A stretch of 64,000 nucleotides of DNA from Spirochaetia bacterium (GTDB lineage: Bacteria; Spirochaetota; Spirochaetia; DSM-16054; Sediminispirochaetaceae): positions 64,001 to 128,000 of the forward strand of contig JAXHMY010000001.1 in the NCBI GenBank assembly GCA_034520965.1. The letters are read 5' to 3'. Position numbers and translations under genes: made by a program. Below the pieces are notes generated by a model. That model saw nothing but the letters and a program-made list of their open reading frames with translations. It did no database searches and was not told where the DNA came from. This document shows positions 8,306-37,128 of this stretch, in pieces. The stretch's first letter is position 1; each line of letters begins with the position of its first letter.

Positions 8306-9856
8306 TTATTTGTTGATTCCGACAAAATACTGGTTGCCTTCTCGAATAAATCCTATCTTAAATTCGTTGGTCGAGCTTGCGTTAACAGCTTTGTAGAAAT
8401 CTATTATTGAGGTAATTTTTTGGCCATTGATCTCTGTGATTACGTCATACGGGCGCAATCCGCCAATAAATGCCTTTGATTGTTTTTCTACATTTGCCAC
8501 CAGCACTCCCTCGGTAGAGGAGTTAAGGTTGAGCTCCTGTGTGGCCTGTTCGTTGAGCGGTACTACTATCATCCCCGGCCATAATTTGTTCTGCTGCTTC
8601 TGAATGGTCTCTGCATCGGCCCGTTCTCCGATTTCAACCGTAACAGAACGCTCTTCACCATAACGGAATAGGGTAAACTCAACCTGTTTTCCGGCCCGAA
8701 GCTGCCCGACAGCCCGAACAAGCTCTTCCCGGTTCTCAATTTTCCGGCCGTCCACTTCGGTAATGAAATCGCCCGGCATTAGGCCGCCCTTTGCAGCCGG
8801 TGAATCCAAATACACATTGTGGACAAAGGCACCTTTCTGAGTCGGCAGGTTCATCTTTTCGGCCAGGCTTTCGGTCATTCCGGCAATCGAAACGCCCAGC
8901 CAGCCGTACTCGACCTTACCGGTACTAATCAGCTGTTCTATAGTCTGTTTGGCGGTATTAATTGGAACAGCGAAACCGAGCCCTACGCTGCCGCCTGAAG
9001 GTGCGGCTATCCACGTGTTTATGCCGATCACCTCGCCCTGCATATTCACTAAGGCACCGCCGGAGTTGCCCCGATTGATAGCTGCATCAGTTTGAATGAA
9101 TTCGCTAATATTATTGGCAGGTCCGGAACGACCCTTGGCACTCACAATACCGGCCGTCACACTGGAAACAAATCCGAAGGGGCTGCCGACCGCCAGGACC
9201 CAGTTTCCAACCTTCACTCTGTCGCTGTTTCCGAGCTGCGCAACCGGGAGGCTGTCTTCGGTTTGAACTTTTACCAAAGCGAGGTCTTTTCGGGGGTCTT
9301 TACCGACAATAGTGGCCTTATACTGTTTTCCTGAAGTCAGTATTACGTTTATCTCATCCGCCTTACCGACTACATGATTATTCGTAAGAACGTAGTAGTT
9401 GTTACTACGCTTTTCTACTATCACCCCCGATCCGAGGCCGCGGCGCTTGAACTCCCTCTGCTGATCCTCGTTCGACTGATTATCCCCTGATTGTCCTTCC
9501 GGCATCATGAAATTCCAGGGGAATCCCAGTTGTTGCGGAACCTGCTGTTCTACAACGTCAATTACCCTTAACTCAACCACCGAAGGCAGAGCTTTTTCTG
9601 CTACTTCATTGAATGAGTTTGGAACACTTGCACTGCCGGAAACCTGCGGTGCCGGCTGGCTGCTTTGTTCGGTTGTCTGCCCCCCGGTTCCACTGCTTCC
9701 TTCACTACTTCCCTGTGCATGTGCAGCTTCGCCTACACCAGCAGAGCCGATATTACTAAATGCAAAGAACGAGAGTACAAAACCGATCAGTATCCCGACT
9801 AAGACAAGATTAAATAAAAAGAACCTTTTTGAATAAAATAGTTTTTTCGTGTTCAT
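8306..9856 (-). CDS. htrA: Do/DegP-family serine endoprotease with two PDZ domains
   Basis: LTNNHVV, DLAL and QTDAAINRGNSGGALV catalytic motifs; N-terminal TM; RBS before ATG 9856. Confidence 0.95.
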   Translation of the reverse strand: MNTKKLFYSKRFFLFNLVLVGILIGFVLSFFAFSNIGSAGVGEAAHAQGSSEGSSGTGGQTTEQSSQPAPQVSGSASVPNSFNEVAEKALPSVVELRVIDVVEQQVPQQLGFPWNFMMPEGQSGDNQSNEDQQREFKRRGLGSGVIVEKRSNNYYVLTNNHVVGKADEINVILTSGKQYKATIVGKDPRKDLALVKVQTEDSLPVAQLGNSDRVKVGNWVLAVGSPFGFVSSVTAGIVSAKGRSGPANNISEFIQTDAAINRGNSGGALVNMQGEVIGINTWIAAPSGGSVGLGFAVPINTAKQTIEQLISTGKVEYGWLGVSIAGMTESLAEKMNLPTQKGAFVHNVYLDSPAAKGGLMPGDFITEVDGRKIENREELVRAVGQLRAGKQVEFTLFRYGEERSVTVEIGERADAETIQKQQNKLWPGMIVVPLNEQATQELNLNSSTEGVLVANVEKQSKAFIGGLRPYDVITEINGQKITSIIDFYKAVNASSTNEFKIGFIREGNQYFVGINK

Positions 9857-21887: not shown

Positions 21888-22313
21888 CTACTGAAATGAG
21901 AGCAGTTTTTCAGATTCAGGGTCGTAATAATTCATGAAGTCGCTGGAGAAGTTAATCCATACCTTCTCGTCCATCTTGAGTGAGGAGAAACCGTTCACGA
22001 GCACCGTGAAGTCGACACCCTGACTTTGTGCCTTAATGATCGTCTCGGACCCTGCCGGCAGGACCGAGTAGACACTCGCCTCTAACCAGCCTTCTGCATG
22101 CTCATGCGAAAGAAAGGTTTTACCGTCTATGATGGTTTTTCCCTCATCCGCATCCTCGAGTCCCGCGATCACTCTCAGAGTGGTAGACTTTCCACAACCC
22201 GACGGCCCGAGGAGAGTCAGAAACTCTCCCTCCGCCAGACTGAAATCAACATTTCGTACAGCGGGAACCCCGCTGTACGATTTTTTTATTCTTTCAACTA
22301 CGATTTTAGACAA
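21888..22313 (-). pseudogene. Sugar ABC ATPase with large internal deletion
   Basis: Walker A GPSGCGKST joined to a TOBE-like C-terminus; no signature motif or Walker B. Confidence 0.8.
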
Positions 22314-22599
22314 AGTTGTTCCTCAAACATTCTAGTTCGAAGTCTCGCGTGTCCAAAAAGCTAACACTCTCGGACCCTCATTCCACATAATATTGAAAGG
22401 AGGAGGATTAGTAAAAATTCCTTCCAATATTTTCCAGTGCTTTTTTATTCACGGTTTTCTGGTACCACTAAACGGTACTACAGTCAATATGAAAATTGAG
22501 CCCTATCGTTGTCGTCGGCGGTTATAGCTCCGGCGGATTTGCTGATTAGCCTAAAGCACATACCTCGTTTTAAGCCTGTACAAAGACGCGTATACTCAT

Positions 22600-23504
22600 A
22601 TCCGCAGCACACCTGCGGATAAATCAACTATCTCCGCATGAGCTTTGCAGATATGACGTCTTATTACGATCTACTCAGGGCGGAGACCTTTCTGAAACTC
22701 TCGATGCGGCCTCAAGCATTGAGGGAAGAGCTGGAGGAAGTCGTTTCCCGTCGAGCCTTGAGAGGGCCGGTCATTATTGATGAAGTTCACTCTATAATAG
22801 AGGATTTGCAGCTTCAATTCATCCTCACCGGCTCGAGTGCAAGAAAAATCAAACGGCGAGGAACCAACCTCCTTGGGGGACGGGCATGGACAAGAAGACT
22901 TCATCCCCTTTGCTCAGCCGAAATCGGTGACTACAATGTGCAGAGAATATTTCACTATGGTTCCATTCCGGTGATGTATGATTCGGAATACCCGGAGGAA
23001 GATTTAAAAGCCTATTGTGGAACCTACCTGCAGCAGGAAATTGCGGAAGAGGGGGCGGCGGAAAAATTGATGCTTTCAGCCGTTTTCTCAGGACCGCCGC
23101 CCTCTACAACGGAGAGCAGGTAAACTATGAAGCCTGGGCATCCGATGCGGCAGTTCCGGCCCGCACCATCAGAGAGTATTTTTCCGTATTGGAGGATACC
23201 CTCCTTGGGGAAATGCTGAATCCCTGGACCCGCGGGAAAAAACGAAAAGCCGTCAGTGCGGGCAAGTTTTTTTTCTTCGACCTTGGGGTACGCAATTATT
23301 GGTGATGATACGGCAATTGAGGTAAAGGCGTCGTCAAACCCCTCGGAGCGGCATATAAAAAACCTCCTGGAGCTGAAAAACGAAGGGCAATTCAGGCATC
23401 TCCTGCTGGTCTGTTCCGTCGATACTCCAAGAAAGCTCAAGGAAGTGGAGATCTTGCCTCTGAAGGTCTTTCTTCAGCGCCTCTGGGAGGGGGAATACTC
23501 CTAG
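22600..23504 (+). pseudogene. AAA_14/DUF4143 ATPase, frameshifted and internally deleted
   Basis: IIDEV, FILTGSSARK, NLLGGRA, FFFFDLG and AIEVKAS spread over three frames. Confidence 0.8.
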
Positions 23505-23651
23505 ACCGCCGGTTTTTCCTCATGATTTTGCGCGTCAAGGGCCATGGGAACAGGCCTAATTGGGTTTCTACGTTTGGACATCAAAGAGATCATCACGTAC
23601 ATTTCGAGCTGCAACGAGTAAGTTCTTGACCCGGTAACGAGTGCAGCGTAT

Positions 23652-23676
23652 AATTATAGTCATCTTGACTATAATT
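23652..23676. promoter_or_regulatory. Inverted-repeat operator of Phd/VapC module
   Basis: AATTATAGTCA-TCT-TGACTATAATT just upstream of the antitoxin ATG. Confidence 0.7.
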
Positions 23677-23687
23677 TTGGAGTTTGC

Positions 23688-23963
23688 ATGACAGATATAT
23701 TTGTTTCTATAGCGGAATTCAAGGCGAAACTCTCCCAATATCTTTCGAGAGGAAAGGAAACTGGACACCGGATCATTGTTACAAAGAGAAGACAGCCGAT
23801 TGCTTCCGTTATTCCCTATGGCGAAACGAACGGAAAAATAACGCCAATGGAAGGCCTTGCATCAATTGCCGGTCGGTGGTCATCCCTGGAGGATATTTCC
23901 CCCTTTATTGACGAGGCAATCGAGACACGAAAAGACGAGGGATATCGTGAAATACCTTTTTGA
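23688..23963 (+). CDS. Phd/YefM antitoxin
   Basis: SIAEFKAKLSQYL...IIVTKRRQPIA. Confidence 0.9.
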   Translation: MTDIFVSIAEFKAKLSQYLSRGKETGHRIIVTKRRQPIASVIPYGETNGKITPMEGLASIAGRWSSLEDISPFIDEAIETRKDEGYREIPF

Positions 23964-24357
23964 CACCGATACGGTAACCACCCTCCTGAAACCGAACCCG
24001 CCTTCATATCTTTTGGAAAGGATGCACACAGTCGAAGCTCACGAACAACATGTTTCCACCATCACGGTTCTCGAAATAAGTTATGGAGCCTACAGGAGTT
24101 CCAGTCCACAAAAATATTTGGACTTCCTGGAAACAGAAATACTTCCGCGGGTACAGATGCTCTCATTCGACGATACAGCAGCCTATATGGCTGGACGCAT
24201 TCGGGCTGAACGGGAGTCTCTCGGCAAACCAATAGCCCCACTGGATCTGCAAATTGCCGCCATAGCCTGGGCAAACGGCTGCACGCTCGTAACCGGGAAC
24301 ACTCGTCATTTCGAATCCATACCGCAAATAGAGGTACAAAACTGGATACGCCTGTAG
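23947..24357 (+). CDS. vapC: VapC/PIN toxin
   Basis: YLFDTD, DLQIAAIA, LVTGNTRHF; GTG start overlapping antitoxin. Confidence 0.9.
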   Translation: MKYLFDTDTVTTLLKPNPPSYLLERMHTVEAHEQHVSTITVLEISYGAYRSSSPQKYLDFLETEILPRVQMLSFDDTAAYMAGRIRAERESLGKPIAPLDLQIAAIAWANGCTLVTGNTRHFESIPQIEVQNWIRL

Positions 24358-24606: not shown

Positions 24607-24650
24607 ATTCCCAAAAAAAATGTGAATTCTTCCTATTGCTTTAGGGAAAA
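24607..24650 (+). promoter_or_regulatory. 44-bp conserved upstream element (copy A)
   Basis: ATTCCCAAAAAAAATGTGAATTCTTCCTATTGCTTTAGGGAAAA; 42/44 identical to reverse complement of 34473-34516. Confidence 0.8.
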
Positions 24651-24815
24651 GCCTTCTGTTAATCTTACTATTGCGTGCAGCATGGAGCAATTGGATTTTT
24701 TTCTGTTATAGATTTAATTTTATTATAAGAAAAAAATAGAGCTTCTTGATGTGTGACTATTTTTCAATACGGCTAGGTTTTGATGACAATGACAGACGCA
24801 ACAGAAGAGGGCATC

Positions 24816-26573
24816 ATGCGGAAGAGCATACTACTACTGTCCTCTGTCTTTATGATCTTACTCCCTTCCGTCCTCTACGGCCAAACAGAAGCCCTTGAAA
24901 GACTGGAAGACGAGCCCCCTGAGCATGAAAGCATTACCATCGTGTACACTTCCGATCTCCAGCAGCGACTTATCGAAAGCATCGAGGGAGACTTCGGCCT
25001 CGTAGAACTCTCTGCAGCGGTCAAATATGCCCGGCAGCAGTACAACCTCATCCTCCTCGATGCCGGAGGATCGAGGAAGTCTGACACACGGTCGGCAATG
25101 GAAGTACAGAGGTATGACGAGGGTCGCCAACTCTATGCAAAGATTCTCGATGAAACGGGCTATGACGCGCAGATACCAGGCAGCGCAGAATTTGCCTGGG
25201 GAATCCATTCTCTGCGTGAGCTCGACCAATCGACCTCGTTTCCCATACTTTGTGCAAATATAGAAACAGAGATAGATTCTTCCGAAGTCGATGAGCCCGA
25301 AGGCACAGCCTCAGGTGCAAGCAATCCTTTCGAAGGATATCAGGTATTCACATTCGAAGGGATCAAGGTGGGAGTATTCGGTATCACCTCACCGAAATCG
25401 ATAGGGCTACTCGAGGGAGAACATGCAACACCCACTTTCCACATAACCGATCCGATTGCCGCGGCAGAGCAGGCTTTGGCTAAGCTCAAAGCTGCAGGTG
25501 CAGAAGTAATAATCGCTGTTACACATATTGGATTGTTCGATCTGTATGAACGAGGGTATTTTGACAATGAGGATATTAAACGGGCCGAACAGCGGCTATC
25601 AGGCCGCGTAGACCTCATCATAGACGGCGGCAACAGCTCCCGTGAGAACCCCGATGTGTACCAACTTGGAAAGACGGTAATTGCTCGCACCGGCGGGGCC
25701 AGTTCCATAGGGGATGCCGAGATCTCTGTTAAGAATAGAGAGGTGACGGGTATCGACATCCGCATGATCGACAAGAAGACTATCGAAGAGGCTGGGTTCG
25801 AGCCTATGCCGGAAGTTGTGTCGCTGATCGATCGTCTCTCGGTGGCGATGGATACCAAGACGCAGACGAAGACGGCGGAAAAGCCAGAAGAGGAGCCTGC
25901 CGAGCAGATTGAACCTAAAAAAGAGCAGGAGCCTCAGGAGGTGGAGAAGGACTCCTCTGAAGAGCTTGATCCCGCATCTCCTCCCGAAGAGGAAAAAGGG
26001 CAGGAAGGAAGTGAGGCTCAGAGCAGGGATAGGGAAGTAGACGAAACTGACGAGGAAGGCTTCGTTATGCCGCAGCTCGAGTTATTTTTTATACCCGGAC
26101 TCACCCTTTACAGCGGTGCCACCGGCTACGGATTAACCATTGGGGCTATGAGCGATCTGGAAGAGCTCTTCGGTCTTTCCTCTCCAGCTGGGAATGTGAT
26201 GCTGGGCCTACTCCTCCGTTATGACGGTTTGAGTATGTCCGCAGAAAATCTGAACCTCAACTCACTCGGGCCGGCACTTATCGCCGGCTACATCTTAGAT
26301 CCTTCAGCTTACCTGGCCGAGATTACCTTTCTCGAAGGCATGCGGGTTATGCCACGGCTCACTCTTGGAGGAATGAGCCTGGACGTCTCGAAAGATGGGC
26401 GCAGCGCCCACTCGGGATTCAGTGCATACCTCGCACCTGGCGTGCTTATAGATAAAAAACTACCCTTCGAGATCGACCTGCGAGCGGGGCTGTCGGCCGA
26501 ATATAACATTACTTTTGGGAACACCGTGTGGAGAAGCTTCCACACGGGAGCCTTCGTGTCCTGGACTTATTAG
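24816..26573 (+). CDS. Degenerate 5'-nucleotidase-type phosphoesterase domain + acidic linker + predicted outer-membrane beta-barrel (paralog A)
   Basis: Signal peptide; TSDLQ, LDAGG, PGSAEF, FPILCANI, KVGVFGITSP; E/K/P-rich linker; amphipathic strands ending FVSWTY. Confidence 0.75.
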   Translation: MRKSILLLSSVFMILLPSVLYGQTEALERLEDEPPEHESITIVYTSDLQQRLIESIEGDFGLVELSAAVKYARQQYNLILLDAGGSRKSDTRSAMEVQRYDEGRQLYAKILDETGYDAQIPGSAEFAWGIHSLRELDQSTSFPILCANIETEIDSSEVDEPEGTASGASNPFEGYQVFTFEGIKVGVFGITSPKSIGLLEGEHATPTFHITDPIAAAEQALAKLKAAGAEVIIAVTHIGLFDLYERGYFDNEDIKRAEQRLSGRVDLIIDGGNSSRENPDVYQLGKTVIARTGGASSIGDAEISVKNREVTGIDIRMIDKKTIEEAGFEPMPEVVSLIDRLSVAMDTKTQTKTAEKPEEEPAEQIEPKKEQEPQEVEKDSSEELDPASPPEEEKGQEGSEAQSRDREVDETDEEGFVMPQLELFFIPGLTLYSGATGYGLTIGAMSDLEELFGLSSPAGNVMLGLLLRYDGLSMSAENLNLNSLGPALIAGYILDPSAYLAEITFLEGMRVMPRLTLGGMSLDVSKDGRSAHSGFSAYLAPGVLIDKKLPFEIDLRAGLSAEYNITFGNTVWRSFHTGAFVSWTY

Positions 26574-26608
26574 GTCTGTTCGAAGGTTAAAATCGGGAGG
26601 TTAATTTC

Positions 26609-29600
26609 ATGAATTCAAGATACATGCGGAACATACTCCGAATCGGATCGGTGGTAACTCTGACTCTGCTTGTGGCAGCGGCGCTTAGTTGTTCAAACCC
26701 ATTGTCGGAGTCAGAACAGATCAAGGAAGAGTTCCTCGAAGAGGACACCGCCGACATTACGATTGAATTCAGTGATGGCGAGAACGCCTCGGCGGTTACG
26801 AAGGACTTGCACCTCCCGAACAAGATAAATGGTACCTCCGTTACATGGTCCTCAAGCAACCCGAGCGTCATACAGAACAACGGCACAGTGCACCGACCGG
26901 CCTTCGATGCAGAAGATAAAACGGTCACACTCACAGCAATACTCGACTACGACGGAACCACGAAAACAAAGAGTTTTGAGGTGAGGGTGGAAAGATTATA
27001 TAAGGTCACTTATGAAACCTATCATTCTCAGATCAACGGGGATCTTCCAGTTCCGCAAGGTGCTGACTCGTACAACATCATTACGCTCAATGATGTAAGC
27101 AGTCTGATCAGCAGAGATGGGTTCAACTATGTTGGGTGGACAACTGTCCCAGAGTCCAGTAGCCCAGAATTCAATCCTGCCGAAGAAATTGTGTTGAGCG
27201 GAGACCTGACATTGTATCCATGCTGGTCAGAGGGTTCTTACAACGTGGTATATGACGGTAATGACGGAGAATATGTTGGTACGGCAACGGATGTGCCCGC
27301 TTCGTCGACTGAAGAATACAATTCTGAGATAACCGTTGCCTCGCAAGGCAGTATGGCGCGCCCCGGTTACACATTTGCAGGCTGGAATACTAAAGAAGAC
27401 GGCACCGGTGACCACTATGATCCTGAGGATTCTCAAGGCAATGCATTTACAATTCCGGCCCAAAACACCACACTGTATGCCCAGTGGACGCCCATTGAGT
27501 ACAGCATTGCCTACGAATTGAACGGGGGCTCCAATGTGGCGGGTAATCCTAACAGCTACACAATCGAGAATTTACCGATAATGCTGGAAGATGCGTCGAA
27601 AACAGACTTCCTTTTCGATGGCTGGGTCGATGGGGAAGATATTCCGACGAATAAAATCCCCATCGGATCGACTATGAATGTTGTTCTGAAGGCGCAATGG
27701 TCTCAAGAGTCAGTTACTTTTGAGAGTGTTGTACAAACAGGCGGAACGTCGGGTACAAGCAATTCGACAGGCTTGATACTAACCTTTGATGTAGATCCAG
27801 CCACATTGGTTGCAGATGATATTACGGTAACCGGAGCGAGCAAGGGAGCATTAACGGGAAGTGGAACCACTAGAAGCCTTGCTATTTCCGATATTGGCGT
27901 TGGAGATGGAGAAATGGTATCAGTTGCCATAACAAACCCATCGGGATACTTGGTTAGCGGCTCACCGAAGTCAGCGGTGGTATATAAAGATACAAGGGAA
28001 GCAGTTACTTTTGAGAGTGTCGTTCAAACAGGAGGAATTTCGGGAACAAAAGACTCAACAGCTTTAACACTAACCTTTGATGTTGACCCGACCACATTGG
28101 TAGCAAATAATATTACGGTAACCGGAGCGACTAATGTTGCATTAAGTGTAAACGGAACAACAAGAACGCTACTTATTTCTGGAATAACCGTGGCGAATGG
28201 TGAAATGGTTTCAGTGGCGATAGCAGACCCCTCAGGATACTCGATAAGCGGCTCACCGAGGTCAGCGGTGGTATATAAAGATACAAGAGAAGCAGTTACT
28301 TTTGAGAGTGCTGTTCAAATCGGGGGAACATCGGGTATAGTCGATACGACGGGGTTAGAGCTGTCTTTTGATGTAGATCCGTCCACATTAACGGCAGATG
28401 ATATTACGGTAAACGGAGCGACCAAGGGCGCATTATCCGACAATGGCGCGACACGAAGCCTTGCTATTTCTGATATTACTGTTGGAGATGGAGAAACAGT
28501 ATCGGTTGCGATAACAAACCCCTCGGGATACTCGATAAGTGGCTCACCGAAGTCAGCGGTGGTATATAAAGATACAAGAGAAGCAGTTACTTTTGAGAGT
28601 GCAGTTCAAATTGGGGGAACATCGGGTACAAGCGATACGACGGGGTTAGAGCTTTCTTTTGATGTAGATCCGGCCACATTGGCCGCAGATGATATTGTGG
28701 TAACCGGAGCAACCGAGGGTGGACTGACGGGAAGCGGAACGAATAGGAATCTTGCTATTTCTGATATTACTGTTGGAGATGGAGAAACAGTATCGGTTGC
28801 GATAACAAATCCTTCGGGATACGTGATAAACGGCTCACCGAGGTCAGCGGTGGTATACAAGGATACAAGAACCGCTGTTACTTTTGAGAATGCTGTTCAG
28901 ACAGGCGGAACGTCGGATATAAGCGATTCGACAGGTTTGACACTGAGCTTTAATATAGATCCGAGCACATTGGCCGCAGATAACATTACGGTAACAGGAG
29001 CGACCAAGGGTGCGCTGACGGGAAGCGGAACGACTAGAAACCTTGCTATTTCTGACATTACAGTTGCTAATGGAAAAACGGTAACGGTTGCCATAACAAA
29101 CCCATCGGGATACCTGATAAGTGGCTCTCCGCAGACAGCGGTGGTGTATAAAACTCCAATACCTGTCACTTTCCAAAGCGCCGTTCAGACAGGCGGAACG
29201 TCGGATATAAGCGATTCGACAGGTTTGACACTGAGCTTTAATATAGATCCGAGCACATTGGCCGCAGATAACATTACGGTAACAGGAGCGACCAGGGGTG
29301 CGCTGACGGGAAGCGGAACGACTAGAAACCTTGCTATTTCTGACATTACAGTTGCTAATGGAGAAACAGTATCAGTTGCCATAACAAACCCATTGGGATA
29401 CCTGATAAGTGGCTCTCCGCAGACAGCGGTGGTGTATAAAGCTCCAATACCTGTCACTTTCCAAAGCGCCGTTCAGACAGGCGGAACGTCGGATATAAGC
29501 GATTCGACAGGTTTGACACTGAGCTTTGATGCAGAACCGAGCACATTGGCCGCAGATAACATTACGGTAACAGGAGCGACCAAGGGTGCGCTGACGGGAA

Positions 29601-30803
29601 GCGGAACTACTTAGAAGCCTTGCTATCTCTGAGATCACAGTTGCTAATGAAGAAACGGTATCGGTTGAGATATCAGACCCAGAGGGATATTCGATAAGCG
29701 GCTCTCCGCAGACAGCGGTGGTGTATAAAGCTTCAATACCTGTCATATTTAATTGGGCAGGCCAAAGGAACGGATCATCTGGTACAGAAACAACAACAGC
29801 GTTACAGCTAAGTTTTAGTAGTGACCCAACCACGTTAACGGCAGATAACATTACGCTAACAGGAGCGTCCAAGGGTACACTGACGGGAAGCGGACTTTAT
29901 AGATATCTTACTATTTCTAACATTACAGTCGCTAATGGAGAGACGATATCGGTTGCGATATCAGATCCAGAGGGATACTCGATAAGCGGTTCACCACAGT
30001 CAGTGGAGGTCTACAAAGATACAAGAACCACTGTTACTTTTGAGGGTGCATATAAAAATAACGGTTCTTCTGGAACAGAACCAACAACAGAGTTATATCT
30101 AAGTTTTAGTAGTGACCCAACCACGTTAACGGCAGATAACATTACGGTAACCGGAGCGACCAAGGGTACACTGACGGGAAGCGGATATTCTAGATATCTT
30201 ACAATTTCGGACCTTACAGTTGCTAATGGAGAAACGGTATCAGTTGCCATAACAGACCCATCGGGATACTTGATAAGCGGCTCTCCGCAGACAGCGATGG
30301 TGTATAATGTAGTAATTGGCACGGAATACCAAGGTGGTAAAATTGCTTATGTTTTTCAACCGGGCGATCCGGGCTATGTAGCAGGTGAAACCCATGGAAT
30401 TATTGCATCATCATACGATATGACTGCTTCAGGAATCTATTACGATGGAATAGAGTGGTCCGAAAACCATATATCCACGGGAGCAACAGGGATTGCACTG
30501 GGTACAGGACAGTCAAATACAACAAAAATAGTAAACACCTCGGGAATAGGAAGCTATTCAGCGGCGAAACTTTGCGCTGATTATACAAATGATGGTTATT
30601 CTGACTGGTATTTGCCTTCATTAGATGAGCTTCAAAAACTTAATGCTAATGCGGATGAAATAGGTAACTTTACCTCTGAACGTTATTGGTCGTCGACAGA
30701 GTACGAAGATGTTCAGGCGTATCAAGTATCATTCAACTTTGGCGCTGATACTCCGTATCATAAGTCCTATCGTTTCCAGGTTCGAGCTGTGCGAAATTTT
30801 TAA
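26609..30803 (+). CDS. Large surface lipoprotein: Ig-like domain, InlB B-repeats, nine 96-97-aa repeats, C-terminal DUF1566/Lcl C-type-lectin-like domain (one +1 frameshift near 29611)
   Basis: Lipobox ALSC-SNP; GYTFAGWN..TLYAQW repeats; repeat spacing 291/288 nt except one of 289; DWYLPSLDEL, YWSSTE, VRAVRNF. Confidence 0.85.
27713..30310 (+). repeat. Nine tandem intragenic repeats of 288-291 bp
   Basis: Unit starts at 27713, 28004, 28295, 28586, 28877, 29165, 29453, 29742 and 30033. Confidence 0.9.
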
Positions 30804-30823
30804 CAACTAATTATTTTAACTAT

Positions 30824-30849
30824 TGGGGGCTGTAAGGAAGATGGCCCCC
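30824..30849 (+). terminator. GC-rich hairpin downstream of lipoprotein gene
   Basis: GGGGGCTGT-AAGGAAG-ATGGCCCCC. Confidence 0.55.
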
Positions 30850-30967
30850 TTAGTTAAAAAAATTGAAATAGTATTATTTTATCCCACATTCCTCACCACT
30901 AAATCTAAAAAATATGTTTCTTCAGAGGGTGTGGAGGTAATAATTAATCTTTAGCTGGTCGTTAATC

Positions 30968-31245
30968 TCGCGAAAGCCTACCAGGCCAAGCAAGTGAGAA
31001 AACTCATCCTGAAGTATAAATTGGAGATATAGAATGTACAAATACGAAATTATCCTCTACTGGAGTGAGGACGACAATTCATACATAGCGGAAGTCCCCA
31101 AATGCCTGGTTGTATGTCTGACGGCCAATCGTATAGGGAGGTGTTGAGTAACGCAGAAGTCATTATAGAAATGTGAATAGAGACTGCAAAATCTCTTGAT
31201 AGACCTATACCGGAACCGAAGAAAGATAAGTTGGAATACGCATAA
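30968..31245 (+). pseudogene. Decayed HicAB toxin-antitoxin pair
   Basis: AKAYQAKQVRKLILKYKL (HicA C-terminus), then MYKYEIILYWSEDDNSYIAEVP...RPIPEP (HicB) with frameshift and internal TGA. Confidence 0.75.
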
Positions 31246-31367
31246 AAGGTTTTGTAGTTAGCATAGCCTTTCGAAAATTCCCTAAATGGTAGGTTTCGTT
31301 TCCCGATGACTCGAATTTGAAGGAGATTTAGTAACAGCCCACTACTGCTTCATAAAAATAGCGGGAG

Positions 31368-31565
31368 ATGATGACCACCTACGGCTCATCGATACCTGTG
31401 TGGCTCGAGGCATTAAGCGGCAATGCCAACGACAAGGTCACCTTTCGCAAGAGCATCGGTAAGTACCGCCGGCAGTCCAAGTCAAAGGAACTTCCCTACT
31501 TCGTGGCCGACAGCGCCCTCTACACGAAAGAGAGCCTGAAAGAGCTCGAAGGAGTGAAGTGGGTC
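31368..31565 (+). mobile_element. IS1634-family transposase fragment
   Basis: IPVWLEALSGNANDKVTF...YFVADSALYT...KW. Confidence 0.7.
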
Positions 31566-31599
31566 ATCCTCCTCATATAAATTTGACAGTATCCCTTAC

Positions 31600-32792
31600 T
31601 TACTTCGTGCCTACATTTTTTATTATCCAATCAGAAGGTCTATTACCATCCTGTATTCCTTCAGCTAATTCGGGTTTTGTGGTGCTCATAGTACCAAGAT
31701 TTATGGCATCACTAAGCTCATTATTAGTCCATAACCCTTTATTTACCGCATTCGTGAGTACACCAAGAGGATTAGCATTTCTCCGATGACAGCCAATAAT
31801 TACTAGTATTATCATCTGTCGTAAAGGGTACAACTTCAATTACAGTACCATCATCCAATTTAATGAAAAGTAACCCATAGGAGTCACCCTCCCAATCAAA
31901 AGTGGTAGTTGATTTACAATCCCAAATATTATCATTTCCAAAACTATCTTGAGCTTTGGTAGTTGTATCCATTGTTCCTACTGTATTGTTAGAATGAACT
32001 CTGATTACATCATTATTTTGTAAAGAGAACTCTGAAAAATCTGAAGCTGTTATTATTTCATTTATATACTTATAAGTCCCACACTTCAATCTCCAATCAC
32101 CTGTTACTTGTGTAACATCATTTATTACAATATCAACCCAAGAATGCCCTCCCTGTAATTCAGCATTTATACCGTTGGAATCATTAATAAAAGATCTTAT
32201 ATTTGCCGCAGCAATGTATTTTGCGTAAAGAGTTATATCAGTTGTTACTGTATCGCTAAAAATCCGACGCTGTGGTCAAGCTGACTTCTTTGAACCAACC
32301 TGTAAACCTGAAACCTTCTTTACTAGGTTCAGATGGCGCAGTAATTGTACTTCCTTCCGTCACCCCGGTAATATCTGCAACCGAAGTGCCCCCGTTCGAG
32401 TTAAAAGAAACTGTGTATTCTGTAGGCAAACTCCATTTCGCATACAGCGTTAGATCTGTCGTCACCGTGTCATTGCTGAAGTCCCATGCAGTAGTCAAAC
32501 CACTGTCTTTATACCAGCCATCAAACACATACCCTGATTTCATCGGCTCAGACGGCGCAGTAATTGTACTGCTTTCCGTCACCCCGGTAATATCTGCAAC
32601 AGAAGAACCCCCATTTGACTCGAAATTAACCGTATATTTCGAAGTAGTCTCAGTTTCAGTAGTGGTTTCCTCGGCAAGCTCTGCAATATTGTTCGGATTC
32701 GAGCATCCAAAAAATATAAGCGCTGCAAGACCAACTATACTTATGAGCACATAAAATTGACTTGATATTTTCATCATCCTATTCTCCCCCAA
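31600..32792 (-). CDS. InlB B-repeat surface lipoprotein (two apparent frameshifts)
   Basis: Lipobox FFGC-SNP; two YTVxFxSNGG...GW repeats; continues through ORFs 31772..32089 and 31600..31839. Confidence 0.7.
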
Positions 32793-32796
32793 TTAT

Positions 32797-34398
32797 TCAA
32801 TAAGTCCACGAAGCAAACGCCCCAATATGAAAGTTGCTCAGAACCTTTTCTGCAAATGTCATTCTATATTCGGCAGTTATGCCTGCCCGTAAGCCCTCGA
32901 AAAGGGGCATTGCCTTGTCTACTACTACCCCCGGCGCGATGTGCATGGAAAAATCAGAATAGTCGGAATTTCCGTCACGCTCAATGCTGAGGCTCAGACC
33001 CCCTACAGTCAGCCGGGGAATTACCCTCACATCCCCTATAAAAGGGGTGTCCGGGAAAAAGTCGCCCAGAACGAAACGATAGCCCCCGAACAGCGCAGGC
33101 CCCCATGCATTGAGCTTCAAATCAGGCGATGAAGTACTAAGACCCTCGTAGCGTAACAGCAGGCCCAGCATGACATTACTAAGAGGCGAGCCAAGGTCGA
33201 ATAGCTCCTCGAAACTGCTCATAACACCGAGCGATGCGCCGTAGCCGACGGCACCGCTGTACAGCGACAGGCCCGGTTCAATCAAAAACTCGAGCTGCGG
33301 CAGTCGTCTCTGCGCTTTGGCGGGTTGCTCCTCCTCGGGCTCTTTTTCCTCAGGCTTAGGTTTCTTCTTCTCACCCTCATCGGTCTCAGTAGCCTGTGCG
33401 GTTTTCTCTGTATCCTCTTGCGCCATAGCAACAGAAAGTTGCTCCAGGAGACTCACCACCTTTGGCATAGGCTCGAGGTTCGCCTCCGCAACTGCATCGG
33501 GGCCGATCATTCTCGTGCGGATATCTGCAACATTATCCCCCTGAACGACAATTTCCACTGCGCCAATGTGGCCGCTTCCTCCTGTTCCGGTAAACACGGT
33601 GCCGCCGAGGCGGGATGGCTTCTCATGGAACTGTGCGGCAGAACCCTCTATTACCACATCGATCTGCCCGGAAAGCGTGGTGGCGATTCTCTCCAGTTCT
33701 TTATCGCTGAAATAACCGCTCTCATACAGATCAACGAGGGGTATGTCGGTCACTGCAATTATTAGCTCTGCACCGCTTTGCTCGAGCTTTTTTACCTCAC
33801 GCGCAGCCGTGTGCAGTACATTTTGTAGCTCCAGCCCTGCTTCATTCTTGGAGTTTTGTGAACTCCCGCTGAGTGTCTCTACGACCTCCGGGCTCACCAC
33901 TGCACACACGCCCACTTCGACACCGTTTATTTCAAAGACGGTAGAACTTTGGAATGGTTTTCTGTCGTTATCCATGATATTCGCGCAGATGAATGGGAAA
34001 TTAGTCTTCTCATTGAGCTCGACAAGCGGTTCGATACCATCGGCAAAGTCGTGCACTCCGGGCACGAAAGCATCATACCCTATCTCTTCGAGCAACTGCA
34101 CATAGAGCCCAGCATAATCGCTTCCCAGATCCACTCCTGGCGGGAGCGGCTCGAAGCTACCGGTACCCAGCACCAGCGGAGTACCTTCCCGGTCCACGTA
34201 GTCCACCACCGCAGAGATATCGGCAATACCGAAACCACCTTCGATTTCATCAAGAATCTGCCGTTGCAGGTCGGAGGTGTGTATAACAGCAATAGACTTA
34301 TCGTTCGGCTGCTCTTCTGTTGCTTTAGTTTGCGCATACAGAACGGGCGCGAAGAATACGCTCAAGAATACAACTATGACCAATGATTTTTTTAACAT
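32797..34398 (-). CDS. Degenerate 5'-nucleotidase-type domain + acidic linker + predicted beta-barrel (paralog B)
   Basis: HTSDLQ, PGVHDF, FPFICANI, EPMPKVVSL, PQLEF, C-terminal FASWTY; clearly paralogous to 24816..26573. Confidence 0.75.
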   Translation of the reverse strand: MLKKSLVIVVFLSVFFAPVLYAQTKATEEQPNDKSIAVIHTSDLQRQILDEIEGGFGIADISAVVDYVDREGTPLVLGTGSFEPLPPGVDLGSDYAGLYVQLLEEIGYDAFVPGVHDFADGIEPLVELNEKTNFPFICANIMDNDRKPFQSSTVFEINGVEVGVCAVVSPEVVETLSGSSQNSKNEAGLELQNVLHTAAREVKKLEQSGAELIIAVTDIPLVDLYESGYFSDKELERIATTLSGQIDVVIEGSAAQFHEKPSRLGGTVFTGTGGSGHIGAVEIVVQGDNVADIRTRMIGPDAVAEANLEPMPKVVSLLEQLSVAMAQEDTEKTAQATETDEGEKKKPKPEEKEPEEEQPAKAQRRLPQLEFLIEPGLSLYSGAVGYGASLGVMSSFEELFDLGSPLSNVMLGLLLRYEGLSTSSPDLKLNAWGPALFGGYRFVLGDFFPDTPFIGDVRVIPRLTVGGLSLSIERDGNSDYSDFSMHIAPGVVVDKAMPLFEGLRAGITAEYRMTFAEKVLSNFHIGAFASWTY

Positions 34399-34472
34399 AC
34401 ATCCTCGGGGTTTGCGATAAAATTTAGAAATCAAACTAATATCCATTAACTTTATTAACTTTAACAAATACA

Positions 34473-34516
34473 TTTTCCCAAAAGCAATAGGAAGAATTCA
34501 CTTTTTTTTTGGGAAT
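34473..34516 (-). promoter_or_regulatory. 44-bp conserved upstream element (copy B)
   Basis: Reverse complement reads ATTCCCAAAAAAAAAGTGAATTCTTCCTATTGCTTTTGGGAAAA. Confidence 0.8.
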
Positions 34517-34552: not shown

Positions 34553-35161
34553 TTAACTGAAAGCCTCGTCGTCGCTCTTTTTCCTCCAACACCATCTATA
34601 CAGGAGAAACGCGATCAGGACGGCGATACCCTTGTCTATCAGGTTGACGGGAATGCGCGCCCAGAAGGCGGCGGAGAAGAGGCCGCGGCCGATGGAGATG
34701 AAACCGGTCATCATGTAGTCCACCGGATGGTCGGTTATTCCCGAGAAGAAGAACACCGCCACCGCCGAACCGACTAGGGCGTTGACCAGTGAGACAACCA
34801 CCGTCACCAGAAGCACATAAAGGACCCTAAGAAATCTCCCCGTGCGGATGAAAAGCCAGAGCGTAATGGCCGAGGCAAAATTGCAGAACACCCAGAACAT
34901 GTAATCGTCGGCCATAAAAGGAAAAAGATCGGGGGTGAGGTGGGTAACCAAAGCAGTAATGAGGCCCGGGATCAAACCGAACAGGGAAACGGAGACCAGA
35001 GTCCCGATGGTGTCGAGGAAGAGAGGTAGGTGGAAGACGTGGGCGTTCGCGTATCCGAGAAAAGCGTTGAAAACCCCGAGCAGGACGGCAGCGAGTACAA
35101 TTACCACGTAGTAGAGAGGAGATTCGATCCTCCTGCGGCAAAAACCGAACAAGTACCTCAT
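34553..35161 (-). CDS. ECF S-component-like integral membrane protein
   Basis: LPLFLDTIGT...FGLIPG and NLIDKGI motifs; about six TMs. Confidence 0.7.
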   Translation of the reverse strand: MRYLFGFCRRRIESPLYYVVIVLAAVLLGVFNAFLGYANAHVFHLPLFLDTIGTLVSVSLFGLIPGLITALVTHLTPDLFPFMADDYMFWVFCNFASAITLWLFIRTGRFLRVLYVLLVTVVVSLVNALVGSAVAVFFFSGITDHPVDYMMTGFISIGRGLFSAAFWARIPVNLIDKGIAVLIAFLLYRWCWRKKSDDEAFS

Positions 35162-35198: not shown

Positions 35199-35900
35199 TT
35201 ATATAATGCCCATTTCTTCTGCAAAAGCCTTGAGCTCAAACACACTCTCAAGCTCTAAGCTTTGCAAAATCGCCTTTCGATAGTTGAGCACTGTTTTCCT
35301 GCTTATGTAGAGCTCCCGCGATATTTGCGGAACATCTTTCCCCACCGCAAATAAAAGAAAAACTTCTTTCTCCCTTTCCGACAGGCAGTTGTAAGCGTCG
35401 TTTTGCACGAGCCCCCGGGCGTTCGGTACCGAACGCACCCACTCAACCAGGGCATCCGTTGCCAATGGCCCAAAATAGTGATGCCCACGGCAGACAGTCC
35501 GCGCGGCCTGCCGAATTATCTCAGCCGAGGAGTCTTTTGCCACGTAGCCCATAGCCCCCAGGCTCACCGCCTTTACAATATAATTCGGCTTCAGAAACAT
35601 GCTCACAAAGAGCACCGCCGGCCGCTCTCTATTCAATTCATTTTCCTCCCGCGTGGTAGGCACACAAGCAAATACATCGAAACCGCTGCTTTCTGGGAGA
35701 TTTACGTCCATCAGGATCAACTGGGGCAGCTGTTTTTCCACAAGTTTACGGAGCTCGGCTACCGTTTCAGCTTCACCTGCGCAATAAAACTCTTCCGCCG
35801 CTTCCAAAACGGTGCGAAGCCCTGTACGCATCGAGGGGTGATCATCGACAACAATAAAAGGAATCTTCTTTTCGTCACTCACTTTTTCTCTCCAGTACAA
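35199..35900 (-). CDS. NarL/FixJ-family response regulator
   Basis: VVDDHP, MDVNLP, LSEREKEV...ISRKTV LuxR HTH. Confidence 0.9.
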   Translation of the reverse strand: MYWREKVSDEKKIPFIVVDDHPSMRTGLRTVLEAAEEFYCAGEAETVAELRKLVEKQLPQLILMDVNLPESSGFDVFACVPTTREENELNRERPAVLFVSMFLKPNYIVKAVSLGAMGYVAKDSSAEIIRQAARTVCRGHHYFGPLATDALVEWVRSVPNARGLVQNDAYNCLSEREKEVFLLFAVGKDVPQISRELYISRKTVLNYRKAILQSLELESVFELKAFAEEMGII

Positions 35901-37128
35901 CAGTAATTCGGGTGCCTTTACCAGATCCGCTTTCTATGTGAAGGCTCGCCCCAATACTCCGCGCTCTCTCTTCCATCCCCAACAAGCCGAGGTGTCTCCC
36001 ATCAAGTTCTTTCGATCGGTGGGGCTGAAACCCCACCCCGTCATCCTCCACAATCAGCCTGAACTGTGGGCGAGCCCATAGCGCCTTTACCTTTACGTGT
36101 GAGGCCTCGGCATATTTCGCCGTATTGTAAAGAGCTTCTTGCAATATGGAAAGCAGCTGCTCCATCTCTCGAAGAGAAAGCGCCGCCCGCGCGACCCCTA
36201 TAACAGAAACGTGTAGTCGGGCTTCCATCATAGCCGCTAATTTGTTGCACAGCATAAGGACATTGTCCTCGAAACTAAGAGATGACGTATCCCACACCGG
36301 TAATCCATCAAGAATACTCCGCAGATTTCGGATCCCCTCGGCAAGGGTCCGTTCCACCTCTTCCAAATTGTTTTGATCACGGCCTTCGCGTAGAAGTTTT
36401 CTTCCCATTTCGAGGTCCTGCAGCACGTGGTCATGGATCACATAGCTTATCTCTTTACGCGCCTCTTCGTACTCGCTAAGCGTCCTCCTGTTGAGAATCC
36501 GCAGGCTCTCTTTTATGGCCGACTCTCTCCTGCGCCTCGTCTCTATATACAACAAGGCCGCCGATAAGAGGAGAATCACCATAATGATAAATATATTGCT
36601 CATCTGAAGAGTAAAGATCTGATGCTGTCCATGCTCATATAGGTAGCTCTCTATTTGGTGTAGATTTGCGACAAGAGTGAGCACCTCATTTGCACTCTCC
36701 TTTCGACTATTGGACCGGTATGTGAGGGGGAGCTCCTGTGTGTTACCGGTTTCAAGACCGTACTTCGCAAGCCTCGCGGTGGTCTGGTTGACCATGGCGC
36801 GAAACTCGGCGTCAGTCTTACACATCTGGGTAATTAGCGGATTGTTCTGGAAGTCATGCAGGAGCTCTACAATTCTTGTATTCTCAGATGAGCTGCCGGG
36901 AGCACTCAGCTGCCCGCCGTTCCCCTCCGAGGTCTCCCCAACCAGAGTCGAGTATTCGAGCAGGAGGATCTCCCTCTCGAGCTCGTGCAACTCCCACTGG
37001 TTATCGAATGCACGCTCTATCATACTGGGGGTAGAGAAGAGAAAGACCAATAACAACACTATAATAAATAATACGAGAAACAAAAGCAGTAGACTATCAT
37101 TTTTTTTCCCTTCACCCTTTTTTGACAT
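35875..37128 (-). CDS. Membrane sensor kinase, HisKA_3 (NarX-like)
   Basis: IHDHVLQ, QEALYNTAKY, EDDGVGF, LGLLGMEER. Confidence 0.9.
   Translation of the reverse strand: MSKKGEGKKNDSLLLLFLVLFIIVLLLVFLFSTPSMIERAFDNQWELHELEREILLLEYSTLVGETSEGNGGQLSAPGSSSENTRIVELLHDFQNNPLITQMCKTDAEFRAMVNQTTARLAKYGLETGNTQELPLTYRSNSRKESANEVLTLVANLHQIESYLYEHGQHQIFTLQMSNIFIIMVILLLSAALLYIETRRRRESAIKESLRILNRRTLSEYEEARKEISYVIHDHVLQDLEMGRKLLREGRDQNNLEEVERTLAEGIRNLRSILDGLPVWDTSSLSFEDNVLMLCNKLAAMMEARLHVSVIGVARAALSLREMEQLLSILQEALYNTAKYAEASHVKVKALWARPQFRLIVEDDGVGFQPHRSKELDGRHLGLLGMEERARSIGASLHIESGSGKGTRITVVLERKSE

Follow-up and report, generated by a model that had tools for sequence, protein, structure and literature searches.

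A spirochaete family of predicted eight-stranded outer-membrane barrels encoded beside lipoproteins, and its version fused to a degenerate 5'-nucleotidase domain

Results

We examined a 64,000-nucleotide stretch of a Spirochaetia genome (the window; G000:C1:64001-128000, from a genome of 3.35 Mb in 9 contigs that is 86% complete) and found two converging copies of one gene pair, as the initial annotation of this locus had proposed. The first gene of each pair specifies a protein (the paralogous fusions A, on the forward strand, and B, on the reverse strand) in which a degenerate 5'-nucleotidase-type domain is joined to a predicted outer-membrane β-barrel, whilst the second specifies a lipoprotein. 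Sequence comparisons indicate that the barrel, and not the dead enzyme, is what defines the family to which these fusions belong, and among its strong matches the barrel gene almost always adjoins a lipoprotein gene. We give a probability of roughly one half to the reading that the barrel serves as dock and tether for the surface lipoprotein encoded with it, with the dead domain acting as a periplasmic tether module.

Fusion A (24816..26573, +; 585 amino acids, aa) consists of a signal peptide, the pseudo-phosphoesterase domain (aa 38-345; 24927..25850, +), a poorly conserved acidic linker (25851..26066, +) of 73 aa with 27 acidic residues, and a barrel domain of 167 aa (26070..26570, +). The layout of fusion B (32797..34398, -; 533 aa) is the same, with the degenerate domain at 33424..34302 (-), a linker of 41 aa with 13 acidic residues, and the barrel at 32800..33300 (-). 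Signal peptides (judged by eye), 5'-nucleotidase-type domain, acidic linker and C-terminal end were thus present in both proteins as had been described. The fusions are 39% identical overall (232/590), with values of 40% for the N-terminal domain, 25% for the linker and 54% for the barrel, and they were the only copies found in genome G000. The lipoprotein gene begins 35 base pairs (bp) downstream of fusion A and 4 bp downstream of fusion B, and the InlB B-repeats (List_Bact_rpt) previously reported for these lipoproteins are present.

The C-terminal barrel

An AlphaFold2 model of the barrel of fusion B, made from 42 sequences, was a closed antiparallel barrel of eight strands (pLDDT 95.9, pTM 0.88). 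Its closest structural match was NspA (Z 17.4, root-mean-square deviation 2.6, 145 residues aligned), followed by a Legionella type IV secretion system porin (Z 17.3) and OmpA (Z 16.5), and Foldseek agreed. Furthermore, a hydrophobic face alternates column by column in the alignment, the terminal residue is Phe, Leu or Tyr across the family, and a BamA gene is present in G000. On the strength of this model we confidently assign the domain to the OmpA/NspA class of eight-stranded outer-membrane folds, in line with the barrel that had been anticipated. Autotransporter (type Va) barrels have 12 strands, and this class was rejected given the eight strands of the model and far weaker structural matches (BrkA Z 7.9).

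By sequence, the family is hard to place. Neither window barrel matched Pfam, and only two of the 42 members matched OMP_b-brl, below the cut-off at an E-value of 0.003 or worse; a PDB sequence search with the barrel profile returned nothing. Comparison with Atlas placed the barrel nearest to unnamed clusters and to TraO/PagL barrels, with a recognition score under threshold that makes this a lead only.

Four charged residues (E4, R92, D128 and R138) are conserved at the predicted periplasmic end, which suggests that the lumen is closed. The longest insertions of the modelled barrel, which carry short helices, also lie on the predicted periplasmic side. Both termini of proteins of the OmpA/NspA class face the periplasm, and the linker and dead domain are therefore predicted to be periplasmic.

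The barrel family and its N-terminal parts

A search with the barrel profile retrieved 62 proteins among 1.84 billion representatives, 41 of them at an E-value of 1e-10 or better; two of the hits (P0063 and P0065) were short chance matches. Amongst sequenced genomes the family was found in 10/401 of the class and 30/401 of the phylum, G000 included, and in one of the nine other genomes of the genus. A match in genome G377 was discarded, as it was not a barrel.

What precedes the barrel varies considerably. We observed members with no N-terminal part at all (L028, L040-L048), with Pro/Glu-rich linkers, with OmpA_C and cadherin-like repeats, with LysM-like domains, and with one or three dead nucleotidase domains. 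OmpA_C and cadherin-like domains were both above the cut-off in 4 of 53 scanned proteins, and a weak LysM match lay below it in 3 of 53. In P0023 and P0028 a LysM-like head is followed by three tandem dead nucleotidase domains; these occupy the place that cadherin-like repeats hold elsewhere, and from this placement we infer a spacer or tether role. The lipoprotein link persists while the N-terminal part is exchanged. As such, the pseudo-enzyme cannot be the defining component that the initial annotation had taken it to be, given that most relatives carry other N-terminal parts or none.

Several arrangements recur around particular members. Downstream of the OmpA_C/cadherin version, all six loci (L006, L022-L026) carry genes for a response regulator of LuxR type and a sensor kinase, and they have a repeated upstream DNA motif in common. 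Stand-alone barrels are found between an alpha-amylase-type gene and a lipoprotein with Ig- or CHB_HEX_C-repeats (L040, L042-L046, L048, L062-L064 and L066, the last ending at a contig edge), and these possibly represent a starch-use locus of other spirochaete classes. Alternating barrel-lipoprotein-barrel-lipoprotein runs occur at L049, L052, L072 and L073, in which the barrel is followed by OmpA_C or a different small domain.

Linkage to lipoprotein genes

A lipoprotein neighbour was scored where a gene on the same strand, starting within -30 to +120 bases, specified a loose lipobox. Amongst barrels scoring at least 60 bits, 22/24 have such a gene directly downstream and one more has it directly upstream, giving 23/24 across 12 families; for arbitrary genes in G000 the rule is satisfied in 42/1081 cases. 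This neighbourhood survey bears out the proposed association of homologues with lipoprotein genes. The partner bodies are diverse (aBig_2, List_Bact_rpt, LamG, LRR_5, FGE-sulfatase, Kelch and Lcl_C), with stalks and varied tips, and ten of the loci lie directly behind an alpha-amylase-type gene (one examined with Pfam).

What the partners do have in common is the start of the mature protein. In 18/22 family partners the lipidated cysteine opens the pattern Cys-Ser/Thr-Asp/Asn/Ser-hydrophobic or Pro; these counts, like those below, were made by eye in related genomes and are raw counts. Within G000, only two of 75 lipobox open reading frames (ORFs) of at least 200 aa display the pattern, and one of these is lipoprotein A. 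A converse set was assembled from 48 rows of aBig_2 genes from other Spirochaetia, of which 13 were dropped because a contig or locus end cut them, they lacked a lipobox, or they came second in a tandem. Of the remaining 35, seven (in three genomes) are immediately preceded by a small barrel-like gene, and 28 (in 14 genomes) lack one there. The start pattern is found in 4/7 of the former and 0/28 of the latter, the former figure rising to 6/7 once Phe is also accepted at position four, a relaxation introduced after the sequences had been inspected. The start of the mature lipoprotein follows barrel adjacency. The seven upstream genes were judged to be barrels from their strand patterns; one is a remote family member (HHalign 92%), and four others compared with the family scored at most 10%.

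Two further sets of loci were noted in these genomes. Other unnamed small-barrel families, with no Pfam barrel match, stand directly upstream of aBig_2 lipoproteins at L123, L124, L131, L133 and L086, with FlgD_ig repeats and OmpA_C added at L124. Stand-alone aBig_2 lipoproteins are numerous in G101 and G190, two genomes of one genus (L114-L122; 24 and 19 domain matches); six of them are clustered within 20 kb, and a transposase-like gene immediately precedes several.

The degenerate nucleotidase domain

The N-terminal domain is of the 5'-nucleotidase/UshA type, with YfkN (3gve) as the best PDB sequence match (E-value 2e-8) and NCBIfam UshA matches at 3e-18 and 9e-17 for the two fusions, far below the curated cut-off; neither fusion matched Pfam. 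All matches stop by residue ~345, after which the linker and barrel follow, so that, as had been noted, the usual 5'-nucleotidase C-terminal (substrate-binding) domain is absent and replaced. A full-length model of fusion B, made from 5 sequences, had a pLDDT of 45.5 and was used for the strand count only, and for this reason the fold of the dead domain rests on the sequence matches.

The initial annotation had read substitutions at the DxH, GD, GNH and GHxH positions, and these four readings were confirmed in the sequences of both A and B. Its conclusion that both copies are catalytically dead is upheld in that only two of eight active-site positions are kept in each, although a fifth metal motif, whose His is kept in A, had been overlooked. 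Both fusions retain the first Asp, joined by the fourth-motif His in A and by the GNH-motif His in B. Extending this to 12 domain copies from 8 barrel fusions, we found no more than 2/8 positions in any, compared with 8/8 in four controls (a fifth sequence picked as a control proved to be a dead domain, the first in a tandem enzyme). The first Asp is retained in 6/6 single-domain fusions, and the triple-repeat proteins retain 0 or 1 of 8 positions. An insert after the fourth motif is common to all 12 copies and specific to this family.

When the domain of fusion A was compared with its orthologue in G006, a genome of the same genus, nonsynonymous divergence (dN) was 0.39 and synonymous divergence (dS) 2.58, a rough value near saturation. 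Because dN is well below dS, the dead domain is, by this measure, under purifying selection and not decaying. The best explanation of these sequence data appears to be that it serves as a binding or structural module instead of an enzyme.

The likely source of the domain, to judge from its sequence, is spirochaete nucleotidases that already carried a degenerate copy. Spirochaetales lipoprotein nucleotidases with a degenerate catalytic domain before an intact one were seen at L009, L010 and L011 (from about base 9000-9400), and the L134 locus specifies a lipoprotein that combines a degenerate domain with an insert resembling that of the fusions. Scans turned up one ordinary nucleotidase locus in metagenomes, and the contig of G006 plus four nucleotidase loci in genomes. 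Searches with longer and shorter versions of the dead domain returned only proteins annotated as ordinary nucleotidases (P0073 was examined), and were insensitive in that they missed the known P0023 and P0028. G000 itself contains an active 5'-nucleotidase split into two adjacent genes (G000:C3:710358-708604, -), each with a signal peptide, one for a catalytic domain of 306 aa with all motifs intact and the other for a substrate-binding domain of 255 aa.

The lipoproteins of the window

Neither lipoprotein gene is a whole ORF in the window assembly. The first frame of lipoprotein A (26609..29614, +; 1001 aa) has its lipobox Cys at 26690, followed by aBig_2, List_Bact_rpt and tandem ~96-aa repeats. 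A one-base shift inside a repeat brings it to a stop at 29614, and the remainder continues in another frame (29595..30803, +) with further repeats and a C-terminal Lcl_C (DUF1566) domain. Lipoprotein B (31600..32792, -) has its lipobox Cys at 32705, two List_Bact_rpt repeats and an unrecognised C-terminal domain, and is interrupted by a shift near 32258 and a second at 31778. The different C-terminal domain claimed for each copy is therefore seen, as Lcl_C/DUF1566 in A and an unrecognised domain in B, but both lie beyond frame breaks. No match for the tip of lipoprotein B was found in Atlas.

At 31778, one base is missing from the short-read contigs of each of two runs, and those of one run show further single-base differences at 23339 and 28519; because of these discrepancies the assembly is considered to carry indel errors, and the break at 31778 is probably one of them. 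These contigs come from the same sample at a depth of about 1-8, and among the pieces listed none bridges the breaks near 29612 and 32258. In G006, the partner lipoprotein is open over the 432 codons covered, with 63-66% identity to lipoprotein A.

The ~96-aa repeats of lipoprotein A (27720-30300) have no convincing Pfam match, and a single copy of this repeat is also present in the G110 partner. No second copy of the DNA for the lipoprotein A tip was found in the genome, and there is thus no sign of a diversity-generating template.

Upstream elements and neighbouring genes

Each pair is preceded by a 44-bp element containing an imperfect inverted repeat, located at 24607..24650 (+) and, with 95% identity, at 34473..34516 (-), the outer ends of which coincide with the limits originally given for the locus. 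In full it occurs only at these two places in G000, and it is partly kept upstream of the G006 orthologue. From its sequence and position it is a probable regulator site or promoter part; scans for sigma-70 promoters and terminators were at chance level.

The ~800 bp between the converging pairs (30810-31600) contain HicB-like and transposase remnants, read by eye, and part of this region matches C9:31936-32218 at 67%. To the left of copy A (21888-24357) are an ATP-binding cassette ATPase gene with a large internal deletion, where a contig runs off at 22378, at 22638-23305 an AAA-type gene split over two frames, and at 23688-24357 a toxin-antitoxin pair of the PIN-domain type. Copy B is closely preceded by a gene resembling the S-component of an energy-coupling factor transporter (34553-35161, -; match below cut-off). 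A response regulator and kinase at 35199-37128 adjoin the pair; these are 23% identical to those of the relatives and not orthologous.

Discussion

In the anchor-and-cargo arrangement that we favour, the fusion would be exported by Sec and its C-terminal barrel inserted into the outer membrane by the β-barrel assembly machinery (BAM). The linker and dead nucleotidase domain would remain in the periplasm, as the fold class and the wall-binding domains found at the same place in relatives suggest. The partner would be a stalked surface protein, its stalk made of Ig-like and InlB-B repeats and its tip of lectin or adhesin type, which may reach the surface by the general route of the cell and then be held by the barrel, most likely at the short conserved stretch right after the lipid-bearing cysteine. 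The periplasmic part would be a swappable tether or spacer through which the complex is braced against the cell wall or some other partner in the periplasm; in the present lineage, this task may have fallen to a nucleotidase domain whose metal site was already lost. Of the roles initially offered for the fusion, namely dedicated translocon, anchor or chaperone, that of anchor fits these observations, while that of translocon fits them poorly, in light of eight strands as opposed to 14 in Slam and of the aBig_2 lipoproteins that lack a barrel.

A number of observations weigh against the anchor interpretation. Linkage weakens away from the core of the family: L051 is a strong match without a lipoprotein neighbour, weaker family matches are linked in 6/16 cases, and of 14 further copies five meet the rule, two have the lipoprotein upstream, three have it within 350 bases and four have none, the misses coming mostly from one family of weak matches. 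The neighbours are known for just three of the eight pseudo-enzyme fusions. The start pattern could be inherited passively, as part of the gene nearest the barrel, or be a general sorting signal, and kinship complicates the comparison, with 15 of the 28 barrel-less lipoproteins coming from two genomes of one genus and the seven with a barrel from three genomes. Domain type is what places the partner at the surface, and gene linkage together with the start pattern is what suggests that it binds the barrel. The dead domain has no recognised wall-binding motif. Lastly, two of the three frame breaks are not explained by reads, and the window copies of the lipoprotein may be decaying.

The alternative that survives best, although we consider it unlikely, is that the barrel is a dedicated export factor, without which its partner would not pass the outer membrane, either by guiding the lipidated N-terminus through BAM or an LptD-like route or by being folded around that terminus, with the periplasmic domain as a holding chaperone. 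The near-constant order of barrel then lipoprotein gene recalls Slam and its cargo (185/353 adjacent; PMC5449769), and a periplasmic N-terminal domain with a C-terminal barrel is the Slam layout too. Loss of LptQ, the small barrel considered below, blocks export of some other lipoproteins (10.64898/2026.10.03.756453). Two Pfam models found no LptD in G000, a blank that carries little weight with the genome 86% complete and spirochaete LptD divergent. On the other hand, eight strands are too few to hold a polypeptide (PMC7553776), and the conserved charged residues suggest a closed lumen; the periplasmic part can be wholly absent; and the 28 of 35 aBig_2 lipoproteins without an upstream barrel indicate that such proteins need none beside them, which counts against a dedicated channel.

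Distinctly less probable is a periplasmic complex of the OmpA-RcsF type, in which the lipoprotein sits on the inner face of the membrane and binds the periplasmic turns or the dead domain, for bracing or sensing. RcsF does bind the periplasmic domain of OmpA (PMC7553776), the longest barrel insertions are on the predicted periplasmic side, and the pair has a response regulator and kinase as neighbours in the window as well as in six relatives. Those regulators are only 23% identical and not orthologues, however; the partner link stays where the periplasmic domain varies or is absent; and the make-up of the partners, repeat stalks whose tips are of lectin, LRR, Kelch or glycan type and which in some cases belong to alpha-amylase loci, points outward.

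We also regard it as quite improbable that the two products are co-regulated but independent, an adhesin- or tether-type barrel and a surface lipoprotein that share an operon without contact. This would agree with the upstream element common to both copies, with a patchy spread typical of mobile cassettes (10/401 class genomes and one of nine others in the genus), and with the family of weak matches that lacks lipoprotein neighbours. It accounts poorly for a link that is maintained when the barrel's N-terminal part and nearly the entire lipoprotein are exchanged and that is seen again in other small-barrel families, and for a start pattern that tracks barrel adjacency. Very improbable, finally, is that the dead domain still binds a nucleotide or phosphate ester (or is a weak, atypical enzyme), making the fusion a periplasmic sensor or scavenging aid, perhaps with a free substrate-binding domain: purifying selection, the first Asp in all single-domain fusions and the split active nucleotidase of the genome would suit this, but the retained residues differ between copies, the triple-repeat proteins have almost none, and the insert after the fourth motif is peculiar to the family.

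Returning to the barrel as an anchor, a broader proposal can be put forward tentatively: several small-barrel families might each read a tag behind the cysteine, required to bring the lipoprotein to the surface or to keep it there, with the exchangeable periplasmic module, be it a wall-binding domain, a repeat stalk or a reused dead enzyme, tying the assembly to the wall. The window pairs would then, just as tentatively, be the pseudo-enzyme version of such a per-cargo display system.

The sorting and display of surface lipoproteins in spirochaetes remain a matter of dispute, and the claim for Borrelia LptD has been challenged. Against this background, the pair offers a small and testable unit of two genes, which includes a candidate recognition tag and all of whose other parts are exchanged in nature. 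Should the barrel do no more than anchor, the family would be new but its kind understood; should export depend on it, the pathway itself would be new. The pair also presents a metallophosphoesterase domain that, singly or as three tandem copies, has apparently been put to new use as a structural module of an outer-membrane barrel protein. We found no description of the barrel family in the open-access literature, nor a paper there on a metallophosphoesterase domain joined to an outer-membrane barrel as a structural module.

Comparison with known systems

The metallophosphoesterase domain of 5'-nucleotidase, UshA and CpdB agrees with that of the fusions in sequence family and motif positions; the fusions differ in the loss of six of eight active-site positions, the missing substrate-binding domain, the attached barrel and, in some, triplication. 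The genes for OmpA and RcsF are unlinked. In that complex an eight-stranded barrel protein binds a lipoprotein through its periplasmic domain (PMC7553776), and the corresponding domain is dispensable across the spirochaete family. With the OmpA/NspA/OmpX class in general the window barrel has its fold in common, and in many of its relatives the fused OmpA_C wall-binding domain; the family differs by the lack of a Pfam match above cut-off, the usual presence of an N-terminal periplasmic domain, and the fixed link to a lipoprotein gene.

Borrelia BB0838/LptD is a general surface-lipoprotein route of a kind that could carry the window lipoproteins out. It is an essential single pathway and not a per-cargo gene pair (10.1101/2022.12.21.521298), and the two Pfam models noted above gave no match in G000. 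Slam (type 11 secretion, DUF560) is similar in having a periplasmic N-terminal domain, a C-terminal barrel and an adjacent lipoprotein gene, as in 23/24 of the spirochaete family. Its 14-stranded barrel, the TPR domain that is always present and the TbpB-like cargo fold (PMC5449769) have no counterpart in the spirochaete pair; a Pfam search for Slam was uninformative, as it gave no match in any control genome.

The nearest precedent is LptQ-LptR of the Bacteroidota lipopolysaccharide translocon, where an eight-stranded barrel with a long N-terminal periplasmic tail anchors a surface lipoprotein, the two genes are always adjacent, and loss of LptQ releases its partner from the complex (10.64898/2026.10.03.756453). 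Adjacent genes for an eight-stranded barrel and a lipoprotein are what the window pairs have as well. Compared by description, LptQ-LptR is one conserved pair within the LptD translocon, whereas the spirochaete partners are variable, the copies patchy and multiple, and the periplasmic part folded and swappable. By analogy, this precedent supports anchoring first, whilst keeping a role in export open.

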